A stretch of 64,000 nt of DNA from Patescibacteria group bacterium (GTDB lineage Bacteria; Patescibacteriota; Microgenomatia; UBA8517): assembly GCA_035291665.1 (NCBI GenBank), contig DATDRP010000006.1:145255-209254 (forward strand), read 5' to 3'. Positions 661-60,551 of the stretch are shown here, piece after piece (the first letter of the stretch is position 1; each line of letters opens with the position of its first letter). Position numbers and translations under genes: made by a program. The notes beneath the pieces were generated by a model. The model made no database searches. It was not told the DNA's origin and was given only the letters and a program-made list of their open reading frames with translations.

Positions 661-778
661 AGTACAAAGAGAATAGTGAAAAGAAATAAGCAATAAAAAT
701 AGGCAATAAGTTGTGGGATGTGAGTAGTGGGAATTGAGTCTTAAGTATTAAGTTTTAAGTAGTTAGTATTGATATATT
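661..778 (-). repeat. Intergenic mosaic element, inverted copy (C-depleted on + strand)
   Basis: Only 4 C in 118 nt (665, 691, 704, 740). 713-733 is the exact reverse complement of 53106-53126 (21-mer TTCCCACTACTCACATCCCAC). Confidence 0.8.
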
Positions 779-11453: not shown

Positions 11454-11468
11454 AATGCAAGTCCTGCC

Positions 11469-12863
11469 ATGGTAAGAAGATCATTCGTTTCAATATATTT
11501 CTTGAATAGTCAGTTCCAGCTGGTTATTCTTTCCGGATCAAAGAAAAAAGTTCAAAAGTATACAACGATTGATTTACCCGAAGGACTGATTTTGAATCAT
11601 GAAGTTCAAGATCCGAAACTCCTTGGTGAAATTCTTAAGAAAGTTTGGGCTAAATACAAAATCAAAGAAAAAAGTGTGGGAATAGTCGTTCCGGAGTTTT
11701 CCACATTCACAAAAAGCTTTAACCTGCCCGATCTTGCTGAAGACGAACTTGATGAAGCAGTAAGATGGCAATCATTAGACTATATTCCGTTGAATCAAAA
11801 TGAGATGGTGCTGGATTGGAAGGTAATTAAACGTACGGAAGCTTCTGTTCAGGTGTTGGCAGTTGCAATAAAGGACAATATTCTCAAAGGTTATGTTGAT
11901 GCAACAGCCCTAGCCGGTCTTTACCCCTTAGTTGTTGAAACACCTTCAATTTCCCTGACGCGTATTAGCGGTGAGAAGGGTGAAAAAATTATTATATTTT
12001 TCTCATTCGATGAAGTTATTATTGTCTTGGCTGATGGCCAAAGTATAATTTCGAGTTCGGTGCTGCATTCCTCCGCTTCGGCACAGGACATCGTACGGAC
12101 CTCCCAGCGGATGACTGCACACTATCAGGATATTTCCATCAAAGAAGTTTATCTTGGAGGTGTAATTTCATCTCAGGAAATTGTTAATCAAGTGGTAACG
12201 GGCTTAAACCTCAAAGCGGTAAAAATTGGGATTAAGGAAATTTCATTTAATGACTCGGAACTTCAAAAATATCTGATTCCGATTTCGCTTCAATTCAAAG
12301 ATCCTGCTGAACCATCAAGTTCAGAAACAATTAACTTATTGCCGGGCGCCGTTGTTTCAAAATATGAAAAGAAAAGATTAAGTGTTCAACTTTGGAGTTT
12401 GATGATGATTACGACTGTGATAATAGTCGTAAGTTTTTTAGCACTTCTGGGAAGTTATATGTACATTATTCAGAACCAGTCTTTTTACAACAATAAAAAT
12501 GAATCCGAAGTTGCAACGTACGGGAAAAACAAAGACGCATTGGAACAGATAAAAACCATCAATTTATCGTCCGATAGGGTTAAAAGTATTTTTAATCTTA
12601 TGCTGTATCCGCAGGATGTTTTAAACCTTGTAAAGAGTGCTGATCAGGAAGGTATACGTGTGATAAATTATAAAATTGATTTTGAAAAAAGGACAGCGCT
12701 CATACAGGGTGTTGCATCAACCAGAGATAATTTGCTGGATTTTAAAACCAGCCTGGAAAAAATGGAAGGAATTTCCGAAGTAAAGCTTCCCCTTTCAAGT
12801 TTTGAAAAAGAAACGGATTTAGAATTCAATATTTCGTTTACGTTTTTGCGTCAAAAAAAATAA
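11469..12863 (+). CDS. pilM: PilM-like actin-fold protein fused to a PilN-like TM/periplasmic segment
   Basis: N-terminal region typical of PilM (GIVVPEFSTFTKSFNLPDL..DELDEAVRWQSLDYIPL). A TM helix (LWSLMMITTVIIVVSFLALLG) follows INLLP, as in PilN. Confidence 0.7.
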   Translation: MVRRSFVSIYFLNSQFQLVILSGSKKKVQKYTTIDLPEGLILNHEVQDPKLLGEILKKVWAKYKIKEKSVGIVVPEFSTFTKSFNLPDLAEDELDEAVRWQSLDYIPLNQNEMVLDWKVIKRTEASVQVLAVAIKDNILKGYVDATALAGLYPLVVETPSISLTRISGEKGEKIIIFFSFDEVIIVLADGQSIISSSVLHSSASAQDIVRTSQRMTAHYQDISIKEVYLGGVISSQEIVNQVVTGLNLKAVKIGIKEISFNDSELQKYLIPISLQFKDPAEPSSSETINLLPGAVVSKYEKKRLSVQLWSLMMITTVIIVVSFLALLGSYMYIIQNQSFYNNKNESEVATYGKNKDALEQIKTINLSSDRVKSIFNLMLYPQDVLNLVKSADQEGIRVINYKIDFEKRTALIQGVASTRDNLLDFKTSLEKMEGISEVKLPLSSFEKETDLEFNISFTFLRQKK

Positions 12864-12869
12864 ATTAAT

Positions 12870-13487
12870 ATGAATGGAAAAAAGAGTGATGAACAACAAT
12901 TGAAAGCTAATAACAGCGGTGAACGGGATATGAAGCAGGTTAAAGAGAAAGTTCAAAAACCGAAAAAGACGATAAATTTTCTTTTGGTCTTCCTCTTTAT
13001 TAACTTGATTATTTTATTGGGCTCTTTATATCTGATTTATGATCTGCCTCGAAAGGCTGAGGTTTTGAAATCCGCAAAAATCGAAGCATTAAAGATTGAA
13101 GAAAGCAGCAAGGTGGATTTAACAGGTCTAGAGATAATCCAAAATAAAAAAAACTGGGAAATATTAAAAAGCTATTTCCCGGATGAAGTTGGTGTTATCA
13201 AATTTATTACCGATCTGGAAACTTTGAAGAAGAATGAAATTATTAAGGACATGTCATTCGTCAGCCAGGATGCCGTTAGGGATAAAACCGGAGCTTTGGG
13301 AATTCCGTTTATAATGGAAATTGAAGGAAGTTGGGACAAAGTAGACGCAGCTTTAAAGGATTTTTATGATTTACCGTATTTGGTGAGAGTGATTAATGTT
13401 GACGCAACTGTCCTTGAGGATGGGAGTGTAAACTTTAAATTTGGGGGTTTTATATATGTCTCAGAGAGCCTTGACAAAAATAGATAG
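12870..13487 (+). CDS. PilO-like bitopic membrane protein (assigned by position)
   Basis: Single N-terminal TM followed by a soluble domain, located between pilMN and the pilin. No strong motif. Confidence 0.4.
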   Translation: MNGKKSDEQQLKANNSGERDMKQVKEKVQKPKKTINFLLVFLFINLIILLGSLYLIYDLPRKAEVLKSAKIEALKIEESSKVDLTGLEIIQNKKNWEILKSYFPDEVGVIKFITDLETLKKNEIIKDMSFVSQDAVRDKTGALGIPFIMEIEGSWDKVDAALKDFYDLPYLVRVINVDATVLEDGSVNFKFGGFIYVSESLDKNR

Positions 13488-13689
13488 TTTTTTCTTTCTG
13501 TTCATTGGGGTAATGATAGTATTGGCTATCTTTGTTGTTGTGGCTTTCAAGGAAATATTTTCATCCATTCGAACGAGTTCCGATGTGACCGTTTCACTTT
13601 CGGAAAATGAATTGAAAGTTGATAAAAATAAATTACAGGAAGCTGTAAGTTTGATTGAATCTAAGGATGTTGTAGAATTAAAAAAGTAA
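13456..13689 (+). CDS. Small bitopic membrane protein
   Basis: ATG at 13456. TM segment FFFLFIGVMIVLAIFVVVAF. Overlaps the upstream gene end and abuts the pilin start. Confidence 0.4.
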   Translation: MSQRALTKIDSFFFLFIGVMIVLAIFVVVAFKEIFSSIRTSSDVTVSLSENELKVDKNKLQEAVSLIESKDVVELKK

Positions 13690-14147
13690 TGAAAAATAAA
13701 TTTAAAGCCTTTACTTTAATTGAACTTTTGATTGTAATTTCGATTATCGGACTACTGGCAACAACAATGGTCATTGCCATTAACCCTTCAAAACAATTAG
13801 CAAAAGCCAGGGATGGACAGAGAGAAGGTGATGTCTATTCAATTTTTTCCTATGTTCAGCAATACAAATCAGAACACAATGGAACATTACCCGATACTGA
13901 CGGAGATCCGGAAACGAATAATTTTCCCACAAGCTTGACTTGTATTGGATCGTCGGGAGGGTGCTTTAACCTTGCAGGAGCCGGTGACGATGATGAATCA
14001 ATAGTGCCTGACTATGCAGCAGCGCTCCCAACTGATCCGAAGACAGGAAGTGGAGTAAATACAGGTTATTTGATTATGGTTGATGCTTATGGCCACATTA
14101 CCGCATCCGCCTCAGGTGAAACAAAGACAATCAGCATAACGAGGTAG
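13689..14147 (+). CDS. pilA: Type IV pilin (candidate major pilin)
   Basis: MKNKFKA|FTLIELLIVISIIGLLA prepilin signal with Glu at +5, and a C-terminal Cys pair (CIGSSGGC). Confidence 0.85.
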   Translation: MKNKFKAFTLIELLIVISIIGLLATTMVIAINPSKQLAKARDGQREGDVYSIFSYVQQYKSEHNGTLPDTDGDPETNNFPTSLTCIGSSGGCFNLAGAGDDDESIVPDYAAALPTDPKTGSGVNTGYLIMVDAYGHITASASGETKTISITR

Positions 14148-14304
14148 AATAATTTTTACGATTAATTACCTCTCTTTCCGAGTTTACCAAACCGGTATGA
14201 CTTTCATCATATTTACCAAACTACTTCAGGTCAGTGTAATAGTATAAAATAAATTTATATATGCGCTTTGAAATGATTCGTAACTTAAGTATTATTAAAT
14301 AACC

Positions 14305-15165
14305 GTGGGAAATTTCTTTAAACGGGTAATGAATGAATTGGTCTATGGAGGCCATCTGCTGTCTTTAGGGGCTTCCGGTATTGTTTGGTCGGTAATACTT
14401 CTGAACGGATCGGATGGCGGATTCCCAATAGTAGTTTTAGCATATTTGATTTCACAACTGGTTTATAACATTGACCATTTGAAAGAAGAGAAGATTGTTA
14501 GTAGTCAAGGAAACGCCGAGAGGACTTCTTACTTGGAGAAAACAAGAAAAAAACAAGTATTTGCGTTAATGATATATGTCGCTTTATTCATAGCCTTTGG
14601 AGTCTTATCTCCTCTTCCGGTTTTTCTTTTATCATCCTCAATAGTTCTGGGAGGGATCCTTTATACATTGAAACTAAAAAAGATGATGAAAGAAATTGTC
14701 GGTTTAAAAAATATCTATATATCCTTTTTTTGGGGTGTTTTAAGTTTTTTGGTACCTTTGTATTATTTCCTTAATCCGCTGAACCCGGTTTTTATATCGA
14801 TTTCATTATTCATTTTTCTTAGATGGATTGTTAATTCAACCTTTTTTGATTTGAAAGATATTGAAAGCGATAAAAAAATTAACATAAAAACCCTACCAGT
14901 AGTTTTTGGATTTACAAAAACAATAAATTATTTACATCTCTTTAATATATTTTCCGGATTAGCTCTTATATTATTTGTCTATTTTTCTGTTTTACCGACA
15001 TATACCATTGTTTTATTATTTTTATGGATATACAGCATGTTTTATCTTGCCAGAGCTAAGTATTTAACTGATAAAGATTTACGCAGTTTGTCTTATATTG
15101 TTGTTGATGGTGAATATATTTTATGGCCATTCGCCATATTAATTGGGAAGTACCTGTTTGAATAG
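14305..15165 (+). CDS. UbiA-family prenyltransferase
   Basis: Polytopic membrane protein with an N/D-rich first motif (YNIDHLKEE) and a second motif (FFDLKDIESDKK). GTG start. Confidence 0.65.
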   Translation: MGNFFKRVMNELVYGGHLLSLGASGIVWSVILLNGSDGGFPIVVLAYLISQLVYNIDHLKEEKIVSSQGNAERTSYLEKTRKKQVFALMIYVALFIAFGVLSPLPVFLLSSSIVLGGILYTLKLKKMMKEIVGLKNIYISFFWGVLSFLVPLYYFLNPLNPVFISISLFIFLRWIVNSTFFDLKDIESDKKINIKTLPVVFGFTKTINYLHLFNIFSGLALILFVYFSVLPTYTIVLLFLWIYSMFYLARAKYLTDKDLRSLSYIVVDGEYILWPFAILIGKYLFE

Positions 15166-15170
15166 TATTT

Positions 15171-16766
15171 ATGAATACAAATATTTTCGTCCAGATTGTA
15201 CTGGTATCGATTAATGCATTTGGGTTAGTCCTCGCCTGGTGGATTCTTCGTGGCGGAAACTCTAAACAATTGAAATTATGGTTCTCTCTTATGACAATAT
15301 TTATACTTTTGTGGGCTAATTTTTCTTATTTTGGTTCGACCGCCAGGAGTGTGTCTACTGGACTATTGTTTTACAGATTAAATTGGGCGGCGGTTTCGTT
15401 ATTTCTACCGTCATTTTTTTATTTTTTTGTAATTTATTTTCTTCTCAAAAGCCACTTGGCTAGTAAAATCGGAATTATAATATTTATTTTATCAATAATA
15501 TTTTTTATTCTTTCGCTTTTTACAGGATTGATTATTAAAGATGTAGTTCAACAAAGCTGGGGTATGGGGATAGTATTCGGACCCCTTTCTGATTATTTCA
15601 ATATCTTCTCAGCAATAGTTGCCATAATTGTTATTACCTATAGTGTGCAAAGTTATAAATCATTATCTAAAGAAATGAAAGTGAAACTAAATTATTTTCT
15701 GGCTGGTATTTTTGTCTTTATAACTGCAAATTTGGTATTTAATGTTGGCTTACAAGTAATTTTCCAGAGTGTAAGATTTCAAATCTATGGAGATTTTTCT
15801 GCGATATTCTTTTTAGTTTTTACAGCCTATGCGATCGTGAAGTATGAACTTTTTGATATAAAAATTATCGCAACTGAAGGTTTAACAGCAGTATTATGGA
15901 TAGTCTTACTTGCTAAAACGTTTGTATCAGAATCTCCGGTACAACTACTAATAAATATTCTTATATTTCTTTTAACCGTAATTTTCGGAGTGCTTTTAAT
16001 AAAAAGTGTCACGCGTGAGGTTAAACAAAGACAACTTCTCGAAGAACTCAATAAAAAGTTGAAAGAGCTTGACAAACAGAAAGATGAATTTGTGAGTATG
16101 GCGGCTCACGAACTTCGTTCCCCGTTAACCGCCATCAAAGGATATGTTTCGATGATTATGGAAGGCGATACAGGTGATATTCCCGAAAAAGCCAGACAAT
16201 ATCTTGCCGATAGCATGGCGGTTACTGACCGGCTTGTTCGTTTGGTCAATAATATGCTCAATGTTTCAAGAATAGAGGAAGGACGGATTGTTTATCAGAT
16301 GGAAGAGACCCATCTTATACGTGCCGTTCAGGAGGTTTATTATTCGTATCGGATTGAAGCAGAAAGAAAAGGGATTGAAATTGTAATGAATATACCCAAC
16401 GGTTTGGATGATGTTGTGTACGTGGACCCCGACAGAATTCGTGAGGTGATCGGGAATATAGTAAGTAATGCTGTAAAGTTTACGGAAAAAGGGAAAATTG
16501 AAATTTCAATAGGGAATCCCCGGAAGGGTGTGGTCAGGGTGGATGTTTCCGACACAGGTCCCGGAATTACCGAAGAAGAGCAAAAAAAATTATTTGTAAA
16601 GTTTTATCGTGCAGAGTCTACAGCCGGTAAAACTTTCGGTACCGGACTCGGGCTTTATATAACAAAGCTTCTGATTGATAATTTCGGTGGTGTGATCGGA
16701 GTTGAGTCACAAATTGATAAAGGAACAACCTTCTGGTTTGAATTACCTGTCAGAAAGCAGGTATAA
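15171..16766 (+). CDS. Sensor histidine kinase with polytopic N-terminal sensor
   Basis: About 8 TM segments, then H-box SMAAHELRSPLTAI, N-box NAVKFT, G1 DTGPGI and G2 GTGLGLYI. Confidence 0.9.
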   Translation: MNTNIFVQIVLVSINAFGLVLAWWILRGGNSKQLKLWFSLMTIFILLWANFSYFGSTARSVSTGLLFYRLNWAAVSLFLPSFFYFFVIYFLLKSHLASKIGIIIFILSIIFFILSLFTGLIIKDVVQQSWGMGIVFGPLSDYFNIFSAIVAIIVITYSVQSYKSLSKEMKVKLNYFLAGIFVFITANLVFNVGLQVIFQSVRFQIYGDFSAIFFLVFTAYAIVKYELFDIKIIATEGLTAVLWIVLLAKTFVSESPVQLLINILIFLLTVIFGVLLIKSVTREVKQRQLLEELNKKLKELDKQKDEFVSMAAHELRSPLTAIKGYVSMIMEGDTGDIPEKARQYLADSMAVTDRLVRLVNNMLNVSRIEEGRIVYQMEETHLIRAVQEVYYSYRIEAERKGIEIVMNIPNGLDDVVYVDPDRIREVIGNIVSNAVKFTEKGKIEISIGNPRKGVVRVDVSDTGPGITEEEQKKLFVKFYRAESTAGKTFGTGLGLYITKLLIDNFGGVIGVESQIDKGTTFWFELPVRKQV

Positions 16767-32566: not shown

Positions 32567-33901
32567 ATGTTTAAAACTCCTCTTCCTAAAGTGTTGCTGA
32601 TAATATTTCTGACCGTTTTTTCAATATATATTAATCTTCCCGGAAGCTTCACGCTTGATTTAACCCGTTACAAAATAAATTTCAATAAAACGCTTTCGAA
32701 ACCTGATCTAAAAATTGGAAGATTCAATTTGGGGAAAAAGAACGAGCTTATTTTGGGACTCGATCTTCAAGGGGGAAGCCGCTTGGTATTTGAAGCCGAT
32801 ACGGTAAATATAGACAGTTCTGTTTCCGGTGATGCATTGACCGGAACGAAAGATATTATAGAGAAACGGGTAAACCTTTTCGGGGTATCCGAACCCAATG
32901 TTCAGCTTTCCGAATTCGAAGGTAAAAAAAGGATTGTTGTTGAGCTTCCTGGGATAAAAGACATTAAGGAAGCAATAAAAATAATCGGGACTACTGCCCA
33001 GCTTAATTTTGCCGAAGTGAGCGAAGAAGAAGATAAAGGTTTGATTCCGACTGATCTAACCGGAGCGGATCTTGTAAAATCCCAAGTACAATTCGATCAA
33101 AAAACTTCAAAACCGGTTGTCGCCATAGAATTTAATGAAGCGGGCGGCAGTAAGTTTGAAAAATTGACGGAAAAAAATATCGGAAAGCCATTAGTAATCC
33201 TTCTGGATAATAATATTATTTCATATCCCACGGTGCAGGATAAAATTTCGGGCGGATCGGCAGTTATTACCGGAGATTTTACTTTGGACGAGGCAAAAAA
33301 TCTTGCAATTCAGCTTAATGCAGGAGCATTGCCCGTTCCGATCACTTTGGTTGAGCAAAGGACTGTCGGAGCGGCATTAGGTACCGAATCAGTACAAAAA
33401 TCTGTGAATGCGGGAGTAGTCGGCTTAGTTATGGTTATGCTCTTTATGATTCTTTCATATGGACGGATGGGTTTTGTTGCCGATTTAGCGCTCCTCATAT
33501 TCGGAACCATTACACTATCCTTGTATAAATTGATTCCCGTAGTTTTAACTCTTCCGGGAATTGCCGGATTTTTACTTTCGGTTGGTATGGCAGTTGATTC
33601 AAATATTTTGATATTTGAAAGGTTTAAAGAGGAAATAATTAAACGACCTTTTACAGATGCTCTTGAAATATCATTTGGGAAAGCATGGGATTCCATACGT
33701 GACGCCAACATTGCAACCCTGTCAACAGCTTTTATTTTGGCAAATCCTTTTGAATGGAATTTTCTACACACTTCCGGTCCGGTACGCGGTTTTGCTATCA
33801 CACTTGCTTTGGGGATTCTGATCAGTTTATTTACAGGCATTGTCGTTACGAGAAATTTACTAAGGGTTCTGATTCGAAAGAGTGGAAGAGTAAAAGAGTA
33901 G
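32567..33901 (+). CDS. secD: Protein translocase subunit SecD
   Basis: LGLDLQGG, periplasmic domain, and a C-terminal 6-TM block with DSNILIFERFKEE. Confidence 0.9.
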   Translation: MFKTPLPKVLLIIFLTVFSIYINLPGSFTLDLTRYKINFNKTLSKPDLKIGRFNLGKKNELILGLDLQGGSRLVFEADTVNIDSSVSGDALTGTKDIIEKRVNLFGVSEPNVQLSEFEGKKRIVVELPGIKDIKEAIKIIGTTAQLNFAEVSEEEDKGLIPTDLTGADLVKSQVQFDQKTSKPVVAIEFNEAGGSKFEKLTEKNIGKPLVILLDNNIISYPTVQDKISGGSAVITGDFTLDEAKNLAIQLNAGALPVPITLVEQRTVGAALGTESVQKSVNAGVVGLVMVMLFMILSYGRMGFVADLALLIFGTITLSLYKLIPVVLTLPGIAGFLLSVGMAVDSNILIFERFKEEIIKRPFTDALEISFGKAWDSIRDANIATLSTAFILANPFEWNFLHTSGPVRGFAITLALGILISLFTGIVVTRNLLRVLIRKSGRVKE

Positions 33902-33963
33902 AAGAGCTTGAGTATTTTTTTTACTTATACACTTGAACTCTCCTGCTCTTATACACTAATCAT

Positions 33964-35216: not shown

Positions 35217-36644
35217 TTACTTCAGTTTTAAAAGAGCTTCGATGAGCTCATCCGGGTTATTTTTGATTTCTTTAGCAACAACCAAGTCAAATAGCTTTTT
35301 TAAAGCTTCACCGACTTTGGGTCCGGGTTTGAGATTGAGTTTTTTCATAACGGTAACTCCGTTAATCTTCAGATCAGTAACTTTGAATGGCTGCTTTTGA
35401 ACAAGTTTTATCTTCCGTTTGAAATCCTCCAATCTCCAGGAGGTTTCACTAGCACCACCACCGAGTCTGTCAGCAGTTCTTAACGCGAGCATATCGGAGA
35501 CGTTTTCCAGACCAACGTTAGTAATAAACCTTCTCACCGCAGTATCTGTTTGATTTTCGTTGACGCTAAATTGGTGCCAGCGGACAAGTTTTTCCAGTTT
35601 TTCGGACTGTTTTTTTGAAAGCTTAATCCTTTTTGCCAACTTCTTGGCAATATATGTACTTACAACTTCATGATTGTAGAAAGTTATTATCCCGCTGTTC
35701 AATTTTTTATAGGTTGATACTTTTCCCAAATCATGAATTAGTATTGCCAGTTTTGTCACGGGGTCTTCGGTTGGTGCAAATTTCAATGACATAAGAGAGT
35801 GTGTCCCGACGTCGTACACATGGTGTCTCCGGGGAGATTTTTGCTGGATATCGAATGCTTTTTCAAATTCGGGAATAATCTGTTCCATAAGTTTGGTTTT
35901 TTGAAGTAACATTACTCCTTCGTGTGCGTACGGAGACTTCATAATTTTCAGAAGTTCATCTCTCACCCTCTCAGCTGTGATTTTTCGGATCGAGTCAGAA
36001 AGTTCCTTAATCGCAAATAAGGTGTGCTCTTCAATTTGGAAACGGATTTCAGTTGCAATTCTAACCGCACGCATCATCCGAAGGGAATCTTCAGTAAAAC
36101 GTTCGACCGGATTTCCTACTGCCCTAATGAGTTTATTTTCGAGATCTTTTTGACCATCGTAAAGATCAATTAGAGTAAAAGTGCGGGAGAGTGCAAGAGC
36201 CTGAGCAGTTTTTTTCTTATACTCTTTTACTCTTTTACTCTCCTGCTCTATTTTCAACGCCATTGCGTTAATGGTGAAGTCGCGTCTTTTGAGGTCGTCA
36301 GTAAGTGTTTTTCCCCACAAGACTTTGTCTGGTCTTCGCGAATCGCTATAACCGTGTTCAGTTCTGAAAGTCGTAATTTCGTAAGGTCTTTCTCCTTCAA
36401 TTTCGTTTGGGATGCCGACGGTTCCGAATTTGTTATCGTAATAAGCATTTTCAAAAAGAGTAAGGATTTGTTCGGGTACAGCATTAGTTGTGAAATCCCA
36501 ATCATAGACAATTTTTCCCATTAAAATGTCCCTTATAGCCCCGCCTACAATATAAATTTCAAAATCTTTTTTTTCAAAAGCGGATATAATTTTTGCTACC
36601 TGACCGGGAACATCAACTTTCATATTATTTGTAGTAAGCATCAA
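35217..36644 (-). CDS. cca: CCA-adding tRNA nucleotidyltransferase with HD domain
   Basis: IVGGAIRD, RDFTINAMA, and the HD motif LAILIHDLGK. Confidence 0.88.
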   Translation of the reverse strand: MMLTTNNMKVDVPGQVAKIISAFEKKDFEIYIVGGAIRDILMGKIVYDWDFTTNAVPEQILTLFENAYYDNKFGTVGIPNEIEGERPYEITTFRTEHGYSDSRRPDKVLWGKTLTDDLKRRDFTINAMALKIEQESKRVKEYKKKTAQALALSRTFTLIDLYDGQKDLENKLIRAVGNPVERFTEDSLRMMRAVRIATEIRFQIEEHTLFAIKELSDSIRKITAERVRDELLKIMKSPYAHEGVMLLQKTKLMEQIIPEFEKAFDIQQKSPRRHHVYDVGTHSLMSLKFAPTEDPVTKLAILIHDLGKVSTYKKLNSGIITFYNHEVVSTYIAKKLAKRIKLSKKQSEKLEKLVRWHQFSVNENQTDTAVRRFITNVGLENVSDMLALRTADRLGGGASETSWRLEDFKRKIKLVQKQPFKVTDLKINGVTVMKKLNLKPGPKVGEALKKLFDLVVAKEIKNNPDELIEALLKLK

Positions 36645-50874: not shown

Positions 50875-51258
50875 ATGCAAACAGGATCTGAACTTTGTAA
50901 AATATGCCCTATTAATGAGAGCTGCAGTTCAGATCTTAACCCTGAAAGTGCAACAAAAAGGAGGCTTGTCATTAATAATCCCTGGAACTGCCGGCATCTG
51001 ACGTGTCCTGCAGGCGTTGAAGAAGCCAAAAAGGAAAAGTCGCGTTTAAGATCTAAAAATATATTTTTTGGTTATGCCTACTTTTCGTCAAAGGACAAAC
51101 CAAGTGTCAGAAGATTTGATATGAAGTTGGGTATTATCGAATCATTTCAGGATGGACAGTGGCATTCAACAGGTCAGTCAATCTATAAAAATTATATTGT
51201 TGATAGAAAAAACTATCCATATAAAAGAATCAGGAATTTCAGTGTGAAGAAAACTTAA
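50875..51258 (+). CDS. Hypothetical Cys-containing basic protein
   Basis: 127-aa ORF. N-terminal CKIC...C...C..C cysteines. No family. Confidence 0.45.
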   Translation: MQTGSELCKICPINESCSSDLNPESATKRRLVINNPWNCRHLTCPAGVEEAKKEKSRLRSKNIFFGYAYFSSKDKPSVRRFDMKLGIIESFQDGQWHSTGQSIYKNYIVDRKNYPYKRIRNFSVKKT

Positions 51259-51323
51259 AACTAAATACCCACTTCCCACAACTCATTTCCTATTTCTTTC
51301 CCCTTTTCTCTATTAGCTAATTT
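51259..51323 (+). repeat. G-depleted intergenic mosaic element (short copy)
   Basis: 1 G in 65 nt. 51278-51314 matches 59601-59637 at 33 of 37 positions. Confidence 0.8.
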
Positions 51324-51776
51324 TTAATCCCTGACTTTTGTCTTTTCTATATCTTCTTCGCTCATGCCGAAATGGTGGGCGATTTCGTGAATAACGGTAT
51401 TTTTGATATTAACAACTGCGTTTTCATAACTATTAGAAATCCGAAGAAGGGGAATTTTAAAGATTGTGATCTTATCAGGGAGCGGTCCGCCGATGCCATA
51501 GTTTCTTCTTTTTGTCTGGGGTATTCCTTCATACAAACCAAGAAGTAATCCTCTGCCTTGGTTTCTCCCGACAAGGTTCATTTGCGATACCGTCGGCCAG
51601 TCAGCAATTACAATTGCCACATTTTCCATTTTGTCTTTGAACTCCTGAGGAAGTTCTTTCAGCGCCTGATCGATAATTTTCCCAAACTCCTGATCATCCA
51701 TGAAGGAAATTATATTTAATCCCAAGCTTAACGGCAAGGAAGGTTCATCGCTGAAGACCAATTCGGCGGCTTTCAT
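51324..51776 (-). CDS. Small zinc metallopeptidase-like protein (HExxH, DUF1025-like)
   Basis: HEIAHHFG motif near the C-terminus. The true start may be the internal Met (MDDQEFGKII). Confidence 0.65.
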   Translation of the reverse strand: MKAAELVFSDEPSLPLSLGLNIISFMDDQEFGKIIDQALKELPQEFKDKMENVAIVIADWPTVSQMNLVGRNQGRGLLLGLYEGIPQTKRRNYGIGGPLPDKITIFKIPLLRISNSYENAVVNIKNTVIHEIAHHFGMSEEDIEKTKVRD

Positions 51777-51826
51777 AAATTTCCTATATTTGATTCTGCG
51801 AAGGAGGTTGTGGATAATGAAGTATT

Positions 51827-53065
51827 ATGGACGAAGCCGGGGATAACATTACTGGAAGTCATATCTCAAGAAGAGATTTTTTGAATATGGGAGTATTGGG
51901 TTTGGCATCAATTGCTACTGGTAAAAAATTGGTGAATACCATTAATTATCTCGCTGACGCATTAGGTGATAAAGTTGAAGAATCGGGAATTAATAACAAG
52001 CTCCATGAAGTTTTGAAAATTGTTCAGGAAAATTCAAAGATGATTGTTAATTTTTCTGACAAATATGGTATCCCACCGGAAGTTTTGGCGACAGTTGTGT
52101 CTATGGAACATTTGATTATTTTAACCGGTAAAACGAAAAAAGATGGATATGCGATAGGTATTTCGGAATCAGATTCCATAAAAGGATTTACTGATTTAAT
52201 CGAGAAAGAAATTCACCCCGATAAAGCCAATATAGGATTGTGTCAAGTAAATCTTCAGGATGCAATCAATTTTGAAGACCGATTGGTTGGAAAAGATGCG
52301 TTTCCTGATGCGGATAAGCAAAAAAGAGAACAAACGACTTATGAGAGGCTGGAATCTCCTTGGTGGAACATGGTGTATTTTTCAGAAATGCTTAAAAAAG
52401 AGGCCGCTGATACCGGAAAAACTATTACAGACAAACAAGCAGCAACCCAGTTTATCAGAGAAAAATACAATGACGACTCTCATAAGTTAAAAATATTTAA
52501 TGAACTACTGGATGTATATTCAAACTTTTTTCAGGATAAGAAACCGGATGAAAAATTTAAGAGGTGTTCACTCGAAGAAGCGATAAGTGTTTGGAATGAA
52601 TACCCAGAGTATTCACATTTATTCCGAAGTGTTTGGCCTGTTGAATACTTTGTAGTTCATCATACTGCAGGTAAATATCACACTGAGTCGATAATCACAG
52701 CGGAACACATTGCCAAAGGTTTTGGTGACATTGGTTATAACGGAATTATCGGGAATGGCGAACTTACAAGCGACGGTAAATTTTATCCTGGGAGAAGTAC
52801 AAAAAAAGAAGGTGCGCATACTTTGAGCTACAACAAAAAGTCCATCGGTGTTGCTTTGGTCGGGGATTTCAATATAACTGAACCCACAACGCTACAACTG
52901 GATTCATTAAGGAAAGCCATTATTGCCAGTTCTGCAATTTATGAGATTGATCCTTTCAAAGTAGTTGGCCACAGAGAACTAAATGATACGCAGTGTCCGG
53001 GAAATAATTTTACAACTGATAAATTCAAAAGACCGGTAGATGTGGCCGCAGGGAAAATAGTATAG
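51827..53065 (+). CDS. Secreted N-acetylmuramoyl-L-alanine amidase (Amidase_2/PGRP fold) with additional N-terminal domain
   Basis: Tat-like SRRDFLNMGVLGLAS. The C-terminal FVVHHTAG...GYNGIIG...AHTLSYNKKSIGVALVGDF...GHRELNDTQCPG is amidase_2. The N-domain contains GLCQVN (SLT-like, weak). Confidence 0.8.
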   Translation: MDEAGDNITGSHISRRDFLNMGVLGLASIATGKKLVNTINYLADALGDKVEESGINNKLHEVLKIVQENSKMIVNFSDKYGIPPEVLATVVSMEHLIILTGKTKKDGYAIGISESDSIKGFTDLIEKEIHPDKANIGLCQVNLQDAINFEDRLVGKDAFPDADKQKREQTTYERLESPWWNMVYFSEMLKKEAADTGKTITDKQAATQFIREKYNDDSHKLKIFNELLDVYSNFFQDKKPDEKFKRCSLEEAISVWNEYPEYSHLFRSVWPVEYFVVHHTAGKYHTESIITAEHIAKGFGDIGYNGIIGNGELTSDGKFYPGRSTKKEGAHTLSYNKKSIGVALVGDFNITEPTTLQLDSLRKAIIASSAIYEIDPFKVVGHRELNDTQCPGNNFTTDKFKRPVDVAAGKIV

Positions 53066-53200
53066 AAAAACTTAACTCCAAATAACTTAATTTCTATTTT
53101 TCCCTTTCCCACTACTCACATCCCACTTCCCATCACCTACCCCCTACAACCTATCTCCTACCGCTTACAATCCACTTTTTATCTCCATTCATCTATATTT
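53066..53200 (+). repeat. G-depleted intergenic mosaic element
   Basis: 1 G (53163) in 135 nt. Contains the 21-mer 53106-53126 shared, inverted, with 713-733. Confidence 0.85.
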
Positions 53201-53205
53201 GTAGC

Positions 53206-53243
53206 TTTCGGATGGCGTACAATACCAGCATTATGCAGGAAAA
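53206..53243 (+). promoter_or_regulatory. 38-bp conserved 5' module, copy 1 (contains TACAAT 53218-53223 and ATG 53233)
   Basis: Identical to 53517-53554 at 34 of 38 positions. Confidence 0.6.
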
Positions 53244-53526
53244 TGAAAAACCATCAATTTGTCAACGGAACTTTATGCTGGATTGCAAGCCCGGCTGTCC
53301 TCTTTATGCTTATTCCAAGAATTCCGTTCAAACTTTGGCGGATCAACACGGAGTGACTTTTGATGAAGCAATAAAAAAGATCCGAAGTATGCGCTTTGAT
53401 CAACAAGTGCAGATTCTGGCTTTAATAAAGGGTGGTTTACAATCCGTAAAAGAGAAGAGGGGGATTGTTTTGGAATGCGATAATGAGAAAAATGGGTTAA
53501 TTTCGGACCATTTTGGTTTCGGATAG
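53233..53526 (+). CDS. Hypothetical small protein (97 aa from ATG 53233, or 104 aa from 53212)
   Basis: ORF with CQRNFMLDCKPGC. The start is chosen by analogy with the duplicated module. No family. Confidence 0.45.
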   Translation: MQENEKPSICQRNFMLDCKPGCPLYAYSKNSVQTLADQHGVTFDEAIKKIRSMRFDQQVQILALIKGGLQSVKEKRGIVLECDNEKNGLISDHFGFG

Positions 53527-53554
53527 CGTACAATACCATCATCATGCCGGAAAA
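53517..53554 (+). promoter_or_regulatory. 38-bp conserved 5' module, copy 2 (TACAAT 53529-53534, ATG 53544)
   Basis: Same TACAAT-to-ATG spacing as copy 1. Overlaps the stop codon of the upstream ORF. Confidence 0.6.
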
Positions 53555-53786
53555 GTGGTTTCGAAGGGTAGAAAATTTGGCAATTATTCCAGTAATAGGT
53601 GGTGATTTACCGGGTATGTATAGGGAGTTTCCACCTGAACTTCATGATGCTTTTGAGGAAGGTAAAAAAGCACTGGTTCCCGGTGAACAGTCTTATATAT
53701 CTATGAGGGGTCCTGTAAAGTATGGTGGTTTTGAAAGCAAAGTATTCATCGTTTCGAAGATCACTCTCGTAAAAGTTGCAGGGTGA
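53544..53786 (+). CDS. Hypothetical small protein (80 aa)
   Basis: ORF immediately after module copy 2. No family, and no similarity to the neighbouring small ORF. Confidence 0.45.
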   Translation: MPEKWFRRVENLAIIPVIGGDLPGMYREFPPELHDAFEEGKKALVPGEQSYISMRGPVKYGGFESKVFIVSKITLVKVAG

Positions 53787-53787
53787 G

Positions 53788-54029
53788 AAACTACTAAAAA
53801 CTTAAAACTGAATACTAAATACTCACAACTCACTTCCCACATCTCACTTCCCATTTCTTTTCGCTTTTCTCTATTCTCTTAATTCCTTAATTCCTATATT
53901 CCTAATTTCTTATCTTCATTTCCCACAACTCACTTCTCACTACTCATTTCCTACTTCCTACCTCCTACAACCTATAACCATTGCCCCTCTCATTTCTCAC
54001 ATCCCACATCCCATCTCTTACAACCTACC
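53788..54029 (+). repeat. G-depleted intergenic mosaic element (long copy)
   Basis: 3 G (53810, 53863, 53983) in 242 nt. 53849-53906 matches 59611-59668 at 54 of 58 positions. Confidence 0.9.
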
Positions 54030-54056
54030 GATCAGTGTTAATATACCAATATAAGT

Positions 54057-55028
54057 ATGAAGAAAATAATTGCCGCTATTTTACTATTATTAACAGCCGC
54101 ATTTGTGTTTTTCGGTTGGCAATATTTTGCTCCGGTTGGTTCATCCGAAGATCTTGTGGTTTTTGTCGTTCCGGAAAAAATGCCGGATTTTAATGTACCC
54201 GAAGAACTGTATAAGCAAAAATATATTAAAAGTTCCAAGGCCTTCCGGTTCCTTCTTGAAAATTTTGCACCGGGAGTAGAGATAAAACCCGGCGGATATA
54301 AAATAAGTCAAAACATGAATGCTTGGCAGGTTATGAAAAAGATTACAGGACAAGAGGATTTGAAATGGGTAACAATTTCTTATTGCCCCCGGAAAGAACA
54401 GGTTGGCGAGAAGCTTGCAGAAGTCTTGGGGTGGAACGACCTGAATCTAAGTGATTGGAATTCGCTCTATAAAAATACCAAACAGGAGTATTTTGAAGGA
54501 GTCTATTATCCGGATACATATCTGATTCCGGTTGACGAATCCCCATCACAAGTTGCCGGAAGATTTATAAACCGTTTCAATGAAAAGTTCGCACCTTTAT
54601 CGGAAAAGTTTATAGAAAAAAATATCAAATGGACGACAGGTCTCAAGATTGCCTCACTTATAGCCCGCGAAGCAGGAGGAACAGAGGATATGAATATAAT
54701 ATCTGCCGTAATCTGGAACCGTTTGGACGGGGGAATGCCGCTTCAGATTGATGCAACGATGCAATACACTCTCGGAAAAAATGAGGATGGCAGCTGGTGG
54801 GGAAATATTGATCTTTCAGAAAAAGATAAAGACTCGCCCTATAATAGCTATATGTATAAAGGACTTCCTCCCACTCCTATTTGCAGTCCGAATGTTAGTG
54901 CCATTGAAGCTGTTATTAACCCCGAAGAAACCGATTGTCTATTTTATCTGCATGACAAGAATAAAAATATTCATTGCGCGGTTTCCTACAAAGACCATCT
55001 GAAGAATATCCAAAAATATTTGAAGTAA
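54057..55028 (+). CDS. mltG: Endolytic murein transglycosylase MltG (YceG-like)
   Basis: N-terminal TM. YFEGVYYPDTY, ASLIAREA, VIWNRL, QIDATMQY, YNSYMYKGLPPTPICSP. Confidence 0.88.
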   Translation: MKKIIAAILLLLTAAFVFFGWQYFAPVGSSEDLVVFVVPEKMPDFNVPEELYKQKYIKSSKAFRFLLENFAPGVEIKPGGYKISQNMNAWQVMKKITGQEDLKWVTISYCPRKEQVGEKLAEVLGWNDLNLSDWNSLYKNTKQEYFEGVYYPDTYLIPVDESPSQVAGRFINRFNEKFAPLSEKFIEKNIKWTTGLKIASLIAREAGGTEDMNIISAVIWNRLDGGMPLQIDATMQYTLGKNEDGSWWGNIDLSEKDKDSPYNSYMYKGLPPTPICSPNVSAIEAVINPEETDCLFYLHDKNKNIHCAVSYKDHLKNIQKYLK

Positions 55029-55166
55029 ACATTAAAAATATACTATAAGAATATTCAGGAAAAGCCATCGAGTCTAATTGGATCTACCTCGACATCCAAG
55101 CTTGACTTGACTCGGGGGGGGATGTCATAGTCATTGACTTATGGGATAGTTTGATGCAATAATCAC

Positions 55167-58100
55167 TTGAGAATGCGGACGTTTTCAAGAAAGCTATCAT
55201 ATCTTCTTTGTTTTACTCTTCTTTTTTACCAACTCTCCCTTTTTTTATTCAACGATGCAAAAACCGCACAAGCAACTACGGCATCATATCAAGTGTCAAC
55301 TTCTACTGATGATGTAAACGAAGACGGCGGGACAATGAATTCAACAAGTACCAGTATTTGGGTGGGAACGGGCGGATCCACAAGCCAAAGTTACACCGGT
55401 TTCCGATTTACCAACGTAAGTATTCCCCAAGGATCAACTATTACATCTGCTTATATAGAGCTTTGGTCTATCCAAGATTCATGGATTGATACCGGTTATC
55501 AAATCGGGGCAGAAAATGTCGGCAATAGTACAACTTTCACAAGTACAACAAAGCCGTCACAACGGGCTCTGACAACCGCCGTGGTCAACTATTCATCAAG
55601 CTCCCATTGGTTAATCAACACTTGGTATCAGGATGCAAACATACCCTCAGTTATTCAGGAAGTTGTTAACCGTACTGATTGGACAAGCGGTAATGCGTTG
55701 TCGATTATTTACAAGGGAACTTCCGCAGCATGGGGTAGAAAGTATGCATCAAGCTATAACGGGAACCCATCCTATGCTCCGCGTTTAGTTGTTGCATTTG
55801 AAGCCGCAACCACGCCTAGTCCGACGCCGCCGCCGACGCCCACTCCCACTGAAACTCCGACTCCTACACCAACAGAAACACCAACTCCTACTCCTACCGA
55901 ATCTCTAACTCCGACTCCCACGGAAATCCCCACTCCCACTCCGACCGAGACGCCAACGCCAATGCCTACCCCAACAGCCTCGGTTACCCCGACACCTCAG
56001 CCACCTTCGGAATGGACGCAGCTCGGACATGACGCACAGCATTCATCGTACACGGAACAATTTGTCCCAACCCCATGGAAGTGGAAATGGTCATGGAACG
56101 GACCCGACGCAGCAGGAAATGTACGTGCGGATAAACTGAATTATCCCGGAAGCAGTGATTTTACAACTCCGGGTATCCCTCGGAATATTCAACCGGTGAC
56201 CGGTGGGGGTAAAGTATATATTGCTGCCGGAAATTTCGGTGTTTACGCCCTTAATGAGGAAGACGTAAATACTGACAGTTTTGCAGATGTTTTGTGGAAC
56301 GTAAATCCGGTTGCTGGTGGTGGAGTTAAGTCAACTCCCGCATACGATAGCGAAACTGGAGCATTATTTGTTCTTGGAACAAATGGCGTTGTTTACAAAT
56401 TGGATACCCTTAACAGCGGGATCGTGATTGGAGAATTTAATACAAATCAAAGTTATGCACCATATACAACAAGTGCTGACCGATACAATCGGGTAGCGTT
56501 GCCGACATCCCCCACACTTTCGGGAAACCGGTTATTTGTATCGATGGGACAGAAAGTTTTTGCACTGGACAAAAACAATCTTAGTAATCTTATATGGGAG
56601 TACGATGCGGGAGCAGAAGTTTATACACCGCCTGCATACTCAACTGTCAGGGATATGGTCTTTGTTGCATCTCAGGATTTGACACCCGGTCCGGATGGAA
56701 AACTTCATATTTATACGCATGCAATATCAAATTCTAATGGACTGGAATTGTGGAAGACTAGCATCACTAATATCACCGGTGTTGAAGCGGGAGACCCCAA
56801 CCCGCCTCCAAATTACACCAGCCAGGTAAGAGCGGAAGTACTTAACGGTTGGCCGGTTATTGCTGAAGAACATGGTCTGGTTTTTATCAAATTAAGACTT
56901 AATTGGAATACGATGTGGACTTGGAGTCCCTGGTCAACGAGCAATGAGACGAACCGGACGAGGCTTCTTTCCAATCCAACACAACAAGCTCTGATTGCTC
57001 TTTCAATGGATAGCGGGAGCCAACCGTTTGTTGTCAATATCGGTCACGGAGGCTATGGAGATGGATTCATCCCGATGGGACCCCAACCGGTTGTAAAGAG
57101 GTTTGCCGATGGGAGTGAAGTTGTCTATACGATGGTAAGGGGAGACAGTCAATCCGGTGTTGACGGTCGTTCGGATACCCACTTTGGGGAGTTGGTTTTG
57201 GATTCAACAACAGCAACCGGATTTGAACCGGGCTATGTCAGATGGATTGAATACGGTAATTATGGTTGGCCGGCAAATTCAAATAATGATACTCCGCCGA
57301 CAGATGAGCAGCCGAATGTATCAATGTCAGGAAACTATCTTTTCGGAGGCCACTGGGCTGTTGGGAATGCGATGGAAATCGTTGATAGGAATGCAAATTT
57401 GGGAGGCTATTCAAACCCCATCACAACAGAACCGATTCCGAATATCGCTTTAATGACAAATTCGTCAACTGTTCCGGAAGGATTTGACTCTTCACACTAT
57501 GTTTCACACAATTTTGGCATGGCAACGAATGGGGAATGGAGGGCGTTGCCTCCCGGATTTTACGTATATTGGAATCAAGGGCATCTTTATGATCAATACT
57601 GGAGCGACTACTCTACCTGGACAGTTAGTAATAATACCGTTTACTATTTGACGAATGATGGTGCACTTGTTGCTTTAGATCACAATAGTGGCAGTCCTAC
57701 ACCTACACCAACACCCAGTCCAACTGCCACGCCTACTCCCACTGAAACTCCGACTCCGATACCGACCGAGATACCAACACCTACGCCAACTGAGATTCCT
57801 ACCCCGACACCGACTGACATTCCGGCTCCGACTCCAACAGAAATACCTACTCCGACACCTACGGATTCTCCCACTCCAACGCCGACTGATACGCCCACTC
57901 CCACGGACACACCCACTCCGACACCTCCGCTAGTGATTAATATGGCTGTCATGAGCGACAGCTCTTCTGATGAGTATCGTGCAGACGACAATCGTGCCGG
58001 AGGAACTCAATGGGAGTTAACAACGCTGGCCTGGACCGAGTTATTGGAAAAATATCGCGGATTTAATTTGGGGTCTTGGGGAACGCGTGGGGAGCCAAGA

Positions 58101-59597
58101 CGGACCGGTTATGAATACAATTGGGCAAGGACAGGTGCCGAAGCAGCAGATGTAGTTTTTGCCGGCCAACATACAGGCGTTGCTTCCCAGGCACAGTCGG
58201 GTTTAGTCAATATTGTTTATTTCCAGATAGGAAACAACGATTTTGCATATTACCGAGACGGTGCAGATATATATAACGGTGCTCTTTCAGGACAGGCTTT
58301 AACCGATAAAATTAATGCAATAATTTCAAATATCTCAACTTCTCTCGATACTGTTTTGGATGCAGATCCAAACGTAAAGGTAATTCTTGGAAATATTGCA
58401 GATCCTGGACTATCACCTTATTGGGCAGCACAATTCCCTGATCCGGTAAAAAGGCAGTTGGTTACCGATGCAATAAACCAAACTAATGCGGGTATAACAA
58501 ACCTGCTTCTTACCCGGAGCAGAGTTACTTTATTTGATCAAATGGCTTTTGCAAACGAGCTTATGTCTAAGGTTGTTAATGGTAATTTGGTGATAGGCGG
58601 AGAAAATATCAGCTTAACTCAAAATGGCGATGAACCCCACCATGCAATTTTGGGAGATAATATCCATGGCGGGACAGTAATGGAAGGCTTAGTTGCCAAC
58701 GGTTTGATTCCTCTGGTAAATCAGACAACCGGATCGCAGATTCAATTATTTTCTGAAACCGAAATTTTGAATAATTCTGGTATCTTTCCCAGTCCGACTC
58801 CGACTCCCACGGTGATTCCTACTCCGACACCTACTCCGGTGTTTGAAACTCACTATATATCGGTAAATCCGGACGGAGTTATCGGAGGGGTAGCTGTTGC
58901 CGGAGAAGATATTCTCAAATTCAATACCGTAACTGGTTTGTATGAAACATACTTCGACGGTTCGGATGTTGAGCTTTCGGGAACATCGATTGATGCGTTT
59001 ACCTTTCTTCCCGGAGGCGACATGATTCTGTCTTTTTCCGGAAGCGTTTCAATAACTGGGTTGGGGACAGTCGCTTCGCAGGACTTGGTCAGGTTTACTC
59101 CGCTTTCGACAGGTAATAGTACAAGCGGATCTTTTAGTTTATATTTTGACGGATCAGATGTTGCCTTAAGCAATTCGTCGGAAAATATAGATTCAGTATC
59201 GGTTTTGGAAAATGGGGATATTCTCTTATCAACAAATGGCAGTATTTCCGTAACCGGAGTTTCAGCAAACGATGAAGATATTATCGAATTTACTCCGACT
59301 TCACTCGGTCCGGCAACTTCGGGAAGCTGGTCACTTTATTTTGATGCATCTGATGTTGGATTATCAAGTACGAGCGAAGATATCGATGCTTTGAGTATCG
59401 CGTCATCGGGAGATTTTTATCTTTCAACAAGCGGCAGCTTCAGTGTTACGGGTGTCTCCGGTCAAAATAATGATGTCTTTATCTTTGATCCGTTAACTTT
59501 GGGAGGGGATTCGTCAGGAACTTTTTCCCAGCCGATTTATTTGGACGGAAGCGCTTTCGGATTATCGGGTTTCAACGTTACGGGATACTACAAATAA
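55167..59597 (+). CDS. 1476-aa secreted multidomain protein: unassigned N-domain, PT linker, PQQ-like beta-propeller, PT linker, SGNH/GDSL-like hydrolase, PT linker, four novel ~64-aa repeats
   Basis: Signal/TM at the N-terminus (start TTG 55167 or ATG 55173). Propeller-type repeats ([62 protein letters not shown]). SGNH blocks ([22 protein letters not shown]). Confidence 0.85.
55811..56005 (+). repeat. Coding Pro/Thr linker 1 (degenerate TPTPTE codon repeats)
   Basis: [56 protein letters not shown]... Confidence 0.85.
57694..57930 (+). repeat. Coding Pro/Thr linker 2 (degenerate TPTPTE/D codon repeats)
   Basis: [79 protein letters not shown]. Confidence 0.85.
58878..59594 (+). repeat. Four tandem ~64-aa protein repeats at the C-terminus of the 1476-aa protein
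   Basis: Units begin near 58878, 59073, 59265 and 59460. Consensus: [ED]D[IL]..F.P...[22 protein letters not shown]....GD..LST.GS.SVTGVS. Confidence 0.75.
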
Positions 59598-59825
59598 CTT
59601 ACAACTCATTTCCCATTTATTTTCCCTTTTCTCTAGTCTCTTAGTTCCTTAATTCCTATATTCCTAATATCCTACCCCCTATCTCTAATAACCAATTATC
59701 AAATTCCAAATACCAAACAATAAATTTCTAATATCTAATTTCCAATAAATTTTCTCTTAGTTCCTTAATTCCTTTATTCCTGATATCCTACCTCCTATAA
59801 CCTGCAACCTATAACCATTATACCC
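59598..59825 (+). repeat. G-depleted intergenic mosaic element (long copy with internal 46-nt duplication)
   Basis: 5 G in 228 nt. 59637-59682 and 59753-59798 are identical at 43 of 46 positions. Colinear with 53849-53906 and 53957-53982. Confidence 0.9.
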
Positions 59826-60551
59826 TCACATTCTGTAGCTTAACGCTGAAGTGTTGGCTTTTGTGATATTAACACTTAGGATTTCACCATCATAATTGAA
59901 TACGAATGAAACACGAGCATCAAGATTGTTTGTGATGTATAGATTTTGTCTTGCACTTTTATCAAATCCGCCGGGAAGATAAAAAATTGAAACTCCGTAT
60001 TCCTTCGGAACTTCATTAATAACAGCAAAATTGTGATTTGAAGGATCATATGCAGTCAGTCCTGCATCTTTTGCCGCCCAGTATAAAATTGATGCCAAAT
60101 GGCAGACACCGTCTCCCATAAGATAACCATCGGACTTGAACCCATCCTGATAGTTGAAGCGGGCATTAGTCGTTTTAACTACATTTTTATTAAACTTATC
60201 CAGTATCTGGCTATGAAAAGCAAAGCTTTCTCCCGGGTTCAAATCAAACTTATAGTCCCTGGGTTTTTCAATATTCTCCCAGACGATTTCTGATTTATTT
60301 TTAACTGTCCCGTCCATATAGTTTAAAGTCAGAAGGATATTATCTTTGAATACATCATTTACAAATTTATTGGGATATCTCTCCTCCAAAGATATGGATT
60401 TTGAAGAAAGGGTAGAGTATCCTTCTTCTTCTACGGAATTATTATTTGCCACATTGACCACCTCCGCCGGGGACGACGGGAATAAAATTATCAGTAATAT
60501 AAAAAGATAAAGTAATTTTTTATACATAGGACTCACTTTTTTTTCAGACAT
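59826..60551 (-). CDS. VanW-like protein
   Basis: N-terminal signal/TM. The GDGVCHLASILYWAAKDAGL motif resembles the VanW-domain GGGVCQ.S.TLY core. Confidence 0.6.
   Translation of the reverse strand: MSEKKVSPMYKKLLYLFILLIILFPSSPAEVVNVANNNSVEEEGYSTLSSKSISLEERYPNKFVNDVFKDNILLTLNYMDGTVKNKSEIVWENIEKPRDYKFDLNPGESFAFHSQILDKFNKNVVKTTNARFNYQDGFKSDGYLMGDGVCHLASILYWAAKDAGLTAYDPSNHNFAVINEVPKEYGVSIFYLPGGFDKSARQNLYITNNLDARVSFVFNYDGEILSVNITKANTSALSYRM

Follow-up and report, generated by a model that had tools for sequence, protein, structure and literature searches.

I describe here five intergenic elements, E1 to E5, found in a 64,000-nt stretch of the genome of a Patescibacteria group bacterium (contig DATDRP010000006.1, positions 145,255 to 209,254; hereafter the window), which very probably belong to a widespread class of bacterial intergenic 7-nt repeats. 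Within this known, unexplained class they are a diversified, lineage-specific and locally dispersed variant in which G is excluded from one strand, and they provide a Woesebacteria-like example, from the candidate phyla radiation (CPR), of heptamer arrays that have diversified while strictly excluding one base. Such G exclusion in diversified arrays points to a maintained strand-specific property rather than to plain slippage, and a Rho-type function, through which the elements would bring about factor-dependent termination or insulation, is possible but doubtful; identity and function, combined as a compromise, make the best explanation overall, although one that falls a little short of being probable. 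The five elements, together with the one + strand junction in the same neighborhood that is free of them, are as follows.

51249..51323, + strand: E1, of which 51259-51323 is intergenic gap; 1 G in 65 nt; self-identity at lag 7 of 0.55
53066..53200, + strand: E2; 1 G in 135 nt; C/G up to 38; minimum free energy 0.0
53787..54029, + strand: E3, the largest element; 4 G in 243 nt; self-identity at lag 7 of 0.62; minimum free energy 0.0
59598..59825, + strand: E4; 5 G in 228 nt
661..778, minus strand: E5, reversed (its G-free strand being the minus one) and the most decayed of the copies; self-identity at lag 7 of 0.59
55029..55166, + strand: element-free junction between mltG and the giant (1476-aa) gene; ordinary composition

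Heptamer mosaics with one G-free strand

All five elements are intergenic, and they are mosaics of degenerate 7-nt tandem units following the pattern CYYAYHH (for example CTCACTT, CCCACAT, CTCACTT, CCCATTT, or TTCCTAC, CTCCTAC, AACCTAT), to which is added one 8-nt module, seen three times (TTCCTTAA TTCCTATA TTCCTAAT). The CYYAYHH register is unbroken for 3-14 consecutive units, and self-identity peaks at lag 7 (0.49-0.62) and at lag 14 in five of five copies, where 0.33 is expected from composition; this strict 7-nt periodicity is a feature beyond the account given in the original prediction, which had been made from the letters of the window and a list of their open reading frames (ORFs). E1 is laid out as a AAAACTTAAAACT head, four heptads (51268-51295) and a CTTTTCTCTA module, and E2 runs through at least eight heptads without a register break (53108-53165: CCCACTA, CTCACAT, CCCACTT, CCCATCA, CCTACCC, CCTACAA, CCTATCT, CCTACCG). 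E3 has 14 consecutive heptads (53787-53884), an 8-nt array (53873-53912) and heptads again at 53915-53982 and 53989-54029, while E4 contains an internal duplication at an offset of 116 nt (59601-59674 and 59717-59790, 68% over 74 nt) and two TTCCTTAATTCCT octamer modules. Tandem Repeats Finder reported period-7 and period-8 arrays in the elements, with 68-100% matches and just 2-5 units per hit rather than the near-identical units of a strict simple-sequence repeat; the arrays combine many unit variants and have decayed or diversified.

The copies are also related to each other over longer distances. Positions 53839-53912 of E3 match 59601-59674 of E4 (89% over 74 nt), 51249-51323 of E1 match 53810-53884 of E3 (79% over 75 nt, a similarity that already begins at 51249, within the last codons of the gene upstream of E1), and 700-733 of E5 match 53106-53139 of E2 in inverted orientation (34 nt, 82%), similarities from which I infer the copying of composite pieces, each about 75 nt long, from one gap to another nearby. 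The octamer module TTCCTTAATTCCTATATTCCT is also present in Prevotella metagenome-assembled genomes (L009:5295-5315, L011:4787-4807 and L010:2696-2883), where, paired with an inverted copy farther upstream (CTAAGGAATTAAGGAATATAGGA), it gives long AT-rich hairpins after stop codons and, in the last of these loci, alternates with TCGGCCGTTAGGCCGA hairpins.

In composition the elements are exceptional for a window of 38.6% GC with more G than C on the + strand, since C makes up 29-36% and G only 1-2% of the + strand of E1-E4. On a crude gene map the four gaps that hold them (51259-51323, 53066-53211, 53787-54056 and 59598-59825) have 2-3% G and 29-35% C, and the remaining gaps of at least 40 nt in the window have 4-24% G (all except one 8-24%). 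Four or fewer G were counted in only 7 of 127,516 windows of 243 nt, both strands included, and the G-poor scan confined these to E3. Among 331 mismatches between neighboring heptads, 134 were C/T, 128 A/T and 41 A/C, and 28 involved G in any combination, 9 of these being A/G. An A/G transition is normally at least as frequent as an A/T transversion, and 9 of the former against 128 of the latter argues that G was kept out while the units diversified and was not merely missing by inheritance from one G-free unit.

For the G-free strand, folding was predicted at 0.0 kcal/mol over 65-243 nt, and not one of 391 random 100-nt background windows (-0.169 +/- 0.058 kcal/mol per nt) was as weak as the elements; the complement strand also folds weakly, at -0.002 to -0.087 kcal/mol/nt. 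On the G-free strand there is no ATG, GTG or TTG in E1, E2 or E4 and one in E3, and coding potential in E2 and E3, the two elements examined for it, amounts to short, unconvincing ORFs.

Four of the five copies lie within 8.6 kb, and no further copies were found in the flanking DNA (2.1 kb on the left of the window, 8 kb on the right), giving five in 74 kb. The original prediction described these four as G-less elements of the same orientation, each beginning directly after a + strand stop codon, and both the coordinates and the composition hold (1-5 G each): the stop codons TAA (51256-58), TAG (53063-65), TGA (53784-86) and TAA (59595-97) stand directly before E1 to E4, with E3 starting one base later than direct abutment. 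E1, however, fills a convergent gap between a 127-aa gene and a minus-strand Zincin_1 gene (51324-51776, stop 51324-26), as E4 does between the 1476-aa surface-protein gene and a minus-strand VanW gene (59826-60551, stop 59826-28), and both end exactly at the minus-strand stop codon, which they abut just as closely as the + strand one. E2 lies between an Amidase_2 gene and the first of two small ORFs, and E3 between the second small ORF and mltG (ATG at 54057), each leaving about 10-30 nt before the next start codon; Pfam confirms the amidase and mltG, both on the + strand. The junction between mltG and the giant gene, set apart in the prediction as the one without an element, has the region's best promoter-like site (TTGACT-18-AATAAT with an upstream TG, 55134-55163).

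E5 lies between the RNase Y gene rny (stop 652-654) and the HU gene hup (851-1153), both on the + strand, and its reversed orientation, already remarked on in the prediction, was borne out by the G-poor scan and by the inverted match to E2. A replichore effect was rejected as the cause of this reversal: GC skew stays positive through nearly all of the window, and no replichore-type switch separates E5 from E1-E4. The proposal that the elements form a regulatory architecture shared by envelope genes finds no support, since E5 flanks rny and hup, relatives do without the elements, and local copying from gap to neighboring gap accounts for the clustering of the copies equally well.

A wider class of intergenic heptamers

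Heptameric repeats have been noted as over-represented in bacterial intergenic DNA since about 1990, and this over-representation is still unexplained. Mazel et al. reportedly described in 1990 the STRR (short tandemly repeated repetitive) sequences of cyanobacteria as tandem heptanucleotides dispersed in non-coding DNA with no known function; their units are said to be near-perfect, cyanobacterial and different from those of the window, and they are not known to show strand-specific base exclusion. The GGGAATC and GGGGA(C/T)T repeats of Xanthomonas and Nostoc (Rehm et al., 2015; PMC4692102) resemble the window elements in being 7-nt tandem units, strongly intergenic, with a preference for co-directional ORFs and a position 0-50 bp from, or overlapping, the stop codon. 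These repeats also vary in length and sequence between related strains and genomes, they are transcribed, either strand being transcribable, no function has been found for them, and the same paper cites the idea that 7 nt is the footprint of the polymerase in slippage (PMC4692102). Unlike the window elements, in which there is no three-tetrad G-quadruplex motif, the Xanthomonas and Nostoc repeats form G-quadruplexes and prefer four units, whereas the window elements have degenerate units of many types, one G-free strand and 75-nt pieces common to several loci. The TAACTGA repeats of Beggiatoaceae, Cyanobacteria and Bacteroidetes are likewise intergenic heptamers with one unit recurring across distant phyla, but they are found mostly a few nt upstream of start codons, have G in the unit and come in short sets of 2-6 copies (MacGregor, 2015; PMC4679880).

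The window elements share with this class their head-to-tail 7-nt units, their place in non-coding DNA, their presence at several loci of one genome and their rapid turnover between relatives. The window comes from a contig of a Rifle aquifer (groundwater) metagenome, and its MltG is 60-73% identical to Woesebacteria and Microgenomates proteins, which marks the host as a CPR bacterium. The G-free elements are absent from three 21-kb loci around mltG orthologues in Woesebacteria relatives (L130-L132). L132 has mltG followed by VanW (minus strand) and YkuD, and since mltG there stands directly beside VanW, the 1476-aa gene and E4 together represent an insertion in the window genome, the gene being probably a recent one. 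The convergent mltG/VanW gap of this relative (L132:10993-11060) holds a different 7-nt array, GAATTAT/GTATTAT/ATTACGA, of about 8 units; what the two genomes share at this place is the periodicity, and neither the sequence nor the G-freeness.

A metagenome scan was made with the conserved core TTCCCACWWCTCAYWTCCYA, which matches four of the five window copies, and it returned at least 118 loci of 26-70% GC. Among the matches listed, many are near-perfect (CACTTCC/CACTTCT)n, that is (CACTTCY)n, arrays of 80-280 nt, and such arrays come from soil, sludge, freshwater and groundwater contigs (for example L023:7452-7599, L054:782-924 in minus orientation, and L071:11229-11449). The matched loci, 750 kb in all, were also searched for tandem repeats more than 150 nt away from the matched arrays, and among the matches listed these other arrays had a period of 7 nt in 76 cases, 14 in 40, 21 in 15, 6 in 3 and 8 in 3, with 45 different units at period 7 alone (GATTTCT, GCTTTTG and AATTCCC are examples); L054, L119 and L006 are rich in varied heptamer arrays. 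The CACTTCY loci thus carry many other units with periods of 7, 14 and 21 and few with periods of 6 or 8; the phenomenon is one of heptamer repeats in general. Many arrays of the wider class contain both G and C, and some at the metagenome loci form inverted pairs able to make hairpins. A viral contig, UViG_3300033153_015561 of IMG/VR (L141:4752 and L142:3122), has a G-rich heptad arm beginning GTGGGAAGTGGAAAGTG and then a C-rich arm beginning CACTTCCCACTTCTCAC, which together would make a long hairpin of heptad arrays.

A scan of genome contigs with the 21-mer TTCCTTAATTCCTWTATTCCT gave only unrelated low-complexity matches (Prevotella hairpins and coding KELRNKG repeats). I found in the searchable literature no description of this core unit, which forms long (CACTTCY)n arrays beside stop codons in contigs of such different GC content and from so many habitats, and searching for the unit sequence returned primers and unrelated matches.

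Possible roles of the G-free strand

A C-rich, G-free, ribosome-free RNA tail is the textbook substrate for Rho loading, and the original prediction had read the elements as a transcript-end signal, Rho-dependent termination being one example. The Rho utilization (RUT) step of RhoTermPredict considers 78 nt with C/G above 1 and a C every 11-13 nt (PMC6407284); E1, E2, E3 and E5 pass it with C/G of 11-38 and E4 does so only at its 5' end, when the 99th percentile of C/G among 78-nt windows of the stretch is 3.8. The elements also match Rut sites mapped by experiment, which are rich in pyrimidines, poor in G and free of structure (PMC12350095). There is no intrinsic terminator (a GC hairpin followed by a U tract) inside any of E1-E5, as the prediction had said of E1-E4; a G-free strand is unable to form the G-C pairs of the hairpin. 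No sigma-70-like promoter was found inside the elements. These gene ends have no hairpin terminators, and the 64 terminator-like sites in the whole window are no enrichment over the approximately 52 expected from shuffles. As far as sequence goes, the + strand elements appear to carry every property of a Rho loading (rut) site, such sites being C-rich, G-poor, unstructured and untranslated over at least 70-80 nt, with regularly spaced C, after stop codons (PMC6407284; PMC12350095). Natural rut sites, however, are not repeat families and have C/G of about 1.6 in E. coli predictions as compared with 11-38 in the elements, for which Rho dependence would be deduced from sequence and of which one copy is reversed.

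The following course of events could account for both the repeats and their proposed function. Units would be amplified into arrays by a slippage-type process, composite pieces of about 75 nt would be copied between nearby gaps, and the arrays would grow up to the neighboring stop codons, with G kept off one strand while the units diversify, leaving that strand fully structure-free. Upon transcription of the upstream + strand gene the element would become a C-rich and G-free 3' tail, or a spacer between cistrons, poor in start codons and free of ribosomes, where Rho or some other factor that binds single-stranded RNA may load, and this loading would lead to factor-dependent termination or to insulation of adjacent units without hairpin terminators. 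That the arrays are factor loading zones for termination is a concrete, testable hypothesis, and if it proves wrong the elements are a clean example of repeat expansion filling dispensable 3' intergenic space.

Several observations weigh against this Rho-type function, beginning with orientation. The G-free strand is unambiguously in sense only in E2 and E3; the orientation of E1 and E4 cannot be assigned to the + strand gene alone because their convergent gaps end at minus-strand stops, and they lie just as much 3' of Zincin_1 and VanW, whose sense strand is the G-rich one. In E5, after rny, the G-rich strand is in sense as well. Among the matches listed from the metagenomes, arrays of at least 80 nt have their neighboring genes on the strand opposite to the G-free one in 15 cases and on the same strand in 6, on each side; in low-GC contigs nearly all neighbors are on the opposite strand, and read in gene sense (GTGRGAA)n starts 5-25 nt past the stop codon. 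As evidence for the transcript-end reading, orientation is weak. Arrays hug stop codons in either polarity, which is expected if they expand until they reach constrained sequence, so that no sense-strand signal is singled out. In addition, the 10-30 nt that follow E2 and E3 provide little room for a release zone, and because three relatives are without elements around mltG, no conserved function is tied to these junctions. A tblastn search with an approximate E. coli Rho query found no rho in 74 kb of this genome and 63 kb of the three relatives, a sample far too small to inform, and a literature search for Rho in the CPR yielded nothing usable. The transcript-end reading is plausible and partly supported, in that it fits the composition, structure and position of the elements, and it is weakened by the two convergent copies, the reversed E5 and the G-rich strand found mostly in sense elsewhere.

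Much of the same evidence is what one would expect of functionless by-products, which arise through slippage and unequal recombination, spread by gene conversion and grow into whatever intergenic DNA can be spared, as far as the next coding sequence or promoter, an explanation that I regard as the main rival, with a clearly smaller chance of being right than wrong. Gaps are filled exactly from stop codon to stop codon, yet the arrays end 11-27 nt short of downstream starts; orientation relative to genes is not fixed; the elements are missing from the relatives, and L132 has another unit in the orthologous gap; host loci carry many unrelated heptamer units; and the literature, having found no function, proposes an origin in polymerase-footprint slippage (PMC4692102). 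Three of the eight differing sites in the most recent paralog pair involve G, which shows that the purging of G is not instantaneous and which also fits by-products. On this reading the elements would be G-free only because hairpin-free arrays are the ones to persist; but G-freeness is not needed for persistence, since many other heptamer arrays have both G and C, the strand-specific avoidance of G is strong over many unit types (the A/G and A/T counts given above), and 243 nt with no predicted structure at all look like something that is being maintained.

It is also conceivable, if unlikely, that the elements are landing pads for a protein that binds single-stranded nucleic acid at about 7 nt per domain (of the cold-shock domain, S1/OB or RRM type), many copies of which would be recruited to the 3' untranslated region (UTR), the intercistronic RNA or single-stranded DNA and would act on mRNA stability, antitermination or translation control. 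Cold-shock proteins bind pyrimidine-rich heptanucleotides, and the strict 7-nt register, with its conserved C-Y-Y-A-Y core and variable spacer positions, and the RNA that is predicted to be fully single-stranded speak for such a protein; the recurrence of the unit across phyla fits a conserved reader. One of the relatives encodes an RRM_1 protein, and for the TAACTGA arrays, which recur across phyla, RNA-binding-protein sites with S1, Csp or CsrA as readers have been proposed (MacGregor, 2015; PMC4679880). On the other hand, a scan of 30 window proteins turned up no candidate binder, a single sequence-specific reader could not cope with units this degenerate, and the elements have neither a fixed orientation nor conservation in relatives. 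A bolder and similarly improbable extension would make G-free heptad arrays a dedicated class of cis-element, read by a conserved trans-acting factor and defining transcript ends or insulating genes; this factor may be Rho, or a cold-shock, RRM or OB-fold protein with about 7 nt per site, and the hosts may be CPR and other bacteria with few hairpin terminators. If true, the cross-phylum recurrence of (CACTTCY)n at stop codons would reflect a shared reader and not slippage alone.

That the G-rich complement is the functional strand, serving as the 3' UTR of Zincin_1, VanW and rny, for example through G-quadruplexes or GGA motifs (CsrA-like), seems very unlikely. E1, E4 and E5 do each adjoin the stop codon of a gene that has the G-rich strand as its sense strand, the complement strands have 2-13 GGA motifs, and the same polarity is seen in the (GTGRGAA)n arrays of the wider class and in GGGNATC repeats (PMC4692102); but next to E2 and E3 there is no minus-strand gene that could be served, folding of the complement is weak, and a three-tetrad motif, (G3+N1-7)x3 G3+, occurs on neither strand of the whole window, on which ground an identity as G-quadruplex heptamer repeats was rejected as well.

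A miniature mobile element (MITE, REP or BIME-like) inserted after genes is hardly credible: five dispersed copies with ordered modules of about 75 nt in common, and a giant gene inserted with E4 relative to L132, might suggest one, but terminal inverted repeats and a palindromic core are impossible on a strand without G, the repeat search gave no inverted pair with both arms in one element, and there are no evident target-site duplications, no transposase nearby and only ragged copy boundaries. Rfam 15 gave no match at gathering score in the window, and between 50500 and 60500 at E up to 1 it gave only a chance-level RgsA match inside the amidase gene; no tRNAs were found.

Other features of the window

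The two small ORFs between E2 and E3, neither of which has a Pfam match, begin with a 38-nt direct repeat of 89% identity (53206-53243 and 53517-53554: TTTCGGATRGCGTACAATACCAKCATYATGCMGGAAAA) that places a TACAAT box some 10 nt ahead of a conserved ATG, an arrangement which suggests paralogous, nearly leaderless genes, each with a promoter of its own. The 1476-aa gene (55167-59597) has 44-45% GC as compared with 38% for the window, and it contains three Pro/Thr-rich linker arrays with a 24-nt period (55788-55990, 57680-57930 and 58790-58834).

There is also a second small repeat family in the window, with an 8-nt period (AAGAGTAG / TCTTTTAC), at 33878-33906 (+) and 36215-36249 (+). Its copies are inverted and 2.3 kb apart with the G-rich strand in sense in both, one being just after the stop of gene 32567-33901 and the other at the 5' end of the minus-strand ORF 35217-36644. 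A divergent bacterial RNase P RNA occupies 3232-3748 of the + strand (RF00010, 76.7 bits, below the gathering score of 100, E = 3e-23); it is 517 nt long as compared with the 367 positions of the model and ends in a hairpin/T-run terminator, and the 49-nt segment that bears this terminator (3730-3778) has a second copy, 82% identical, 92 nt downstream at 3822-3870. The left third of the window carries a type IV pilus / type II secretion cluster (4190-16766) with a T2SSE ATPase, T2SSF, PilM_2 and several N_methyl prepilins.

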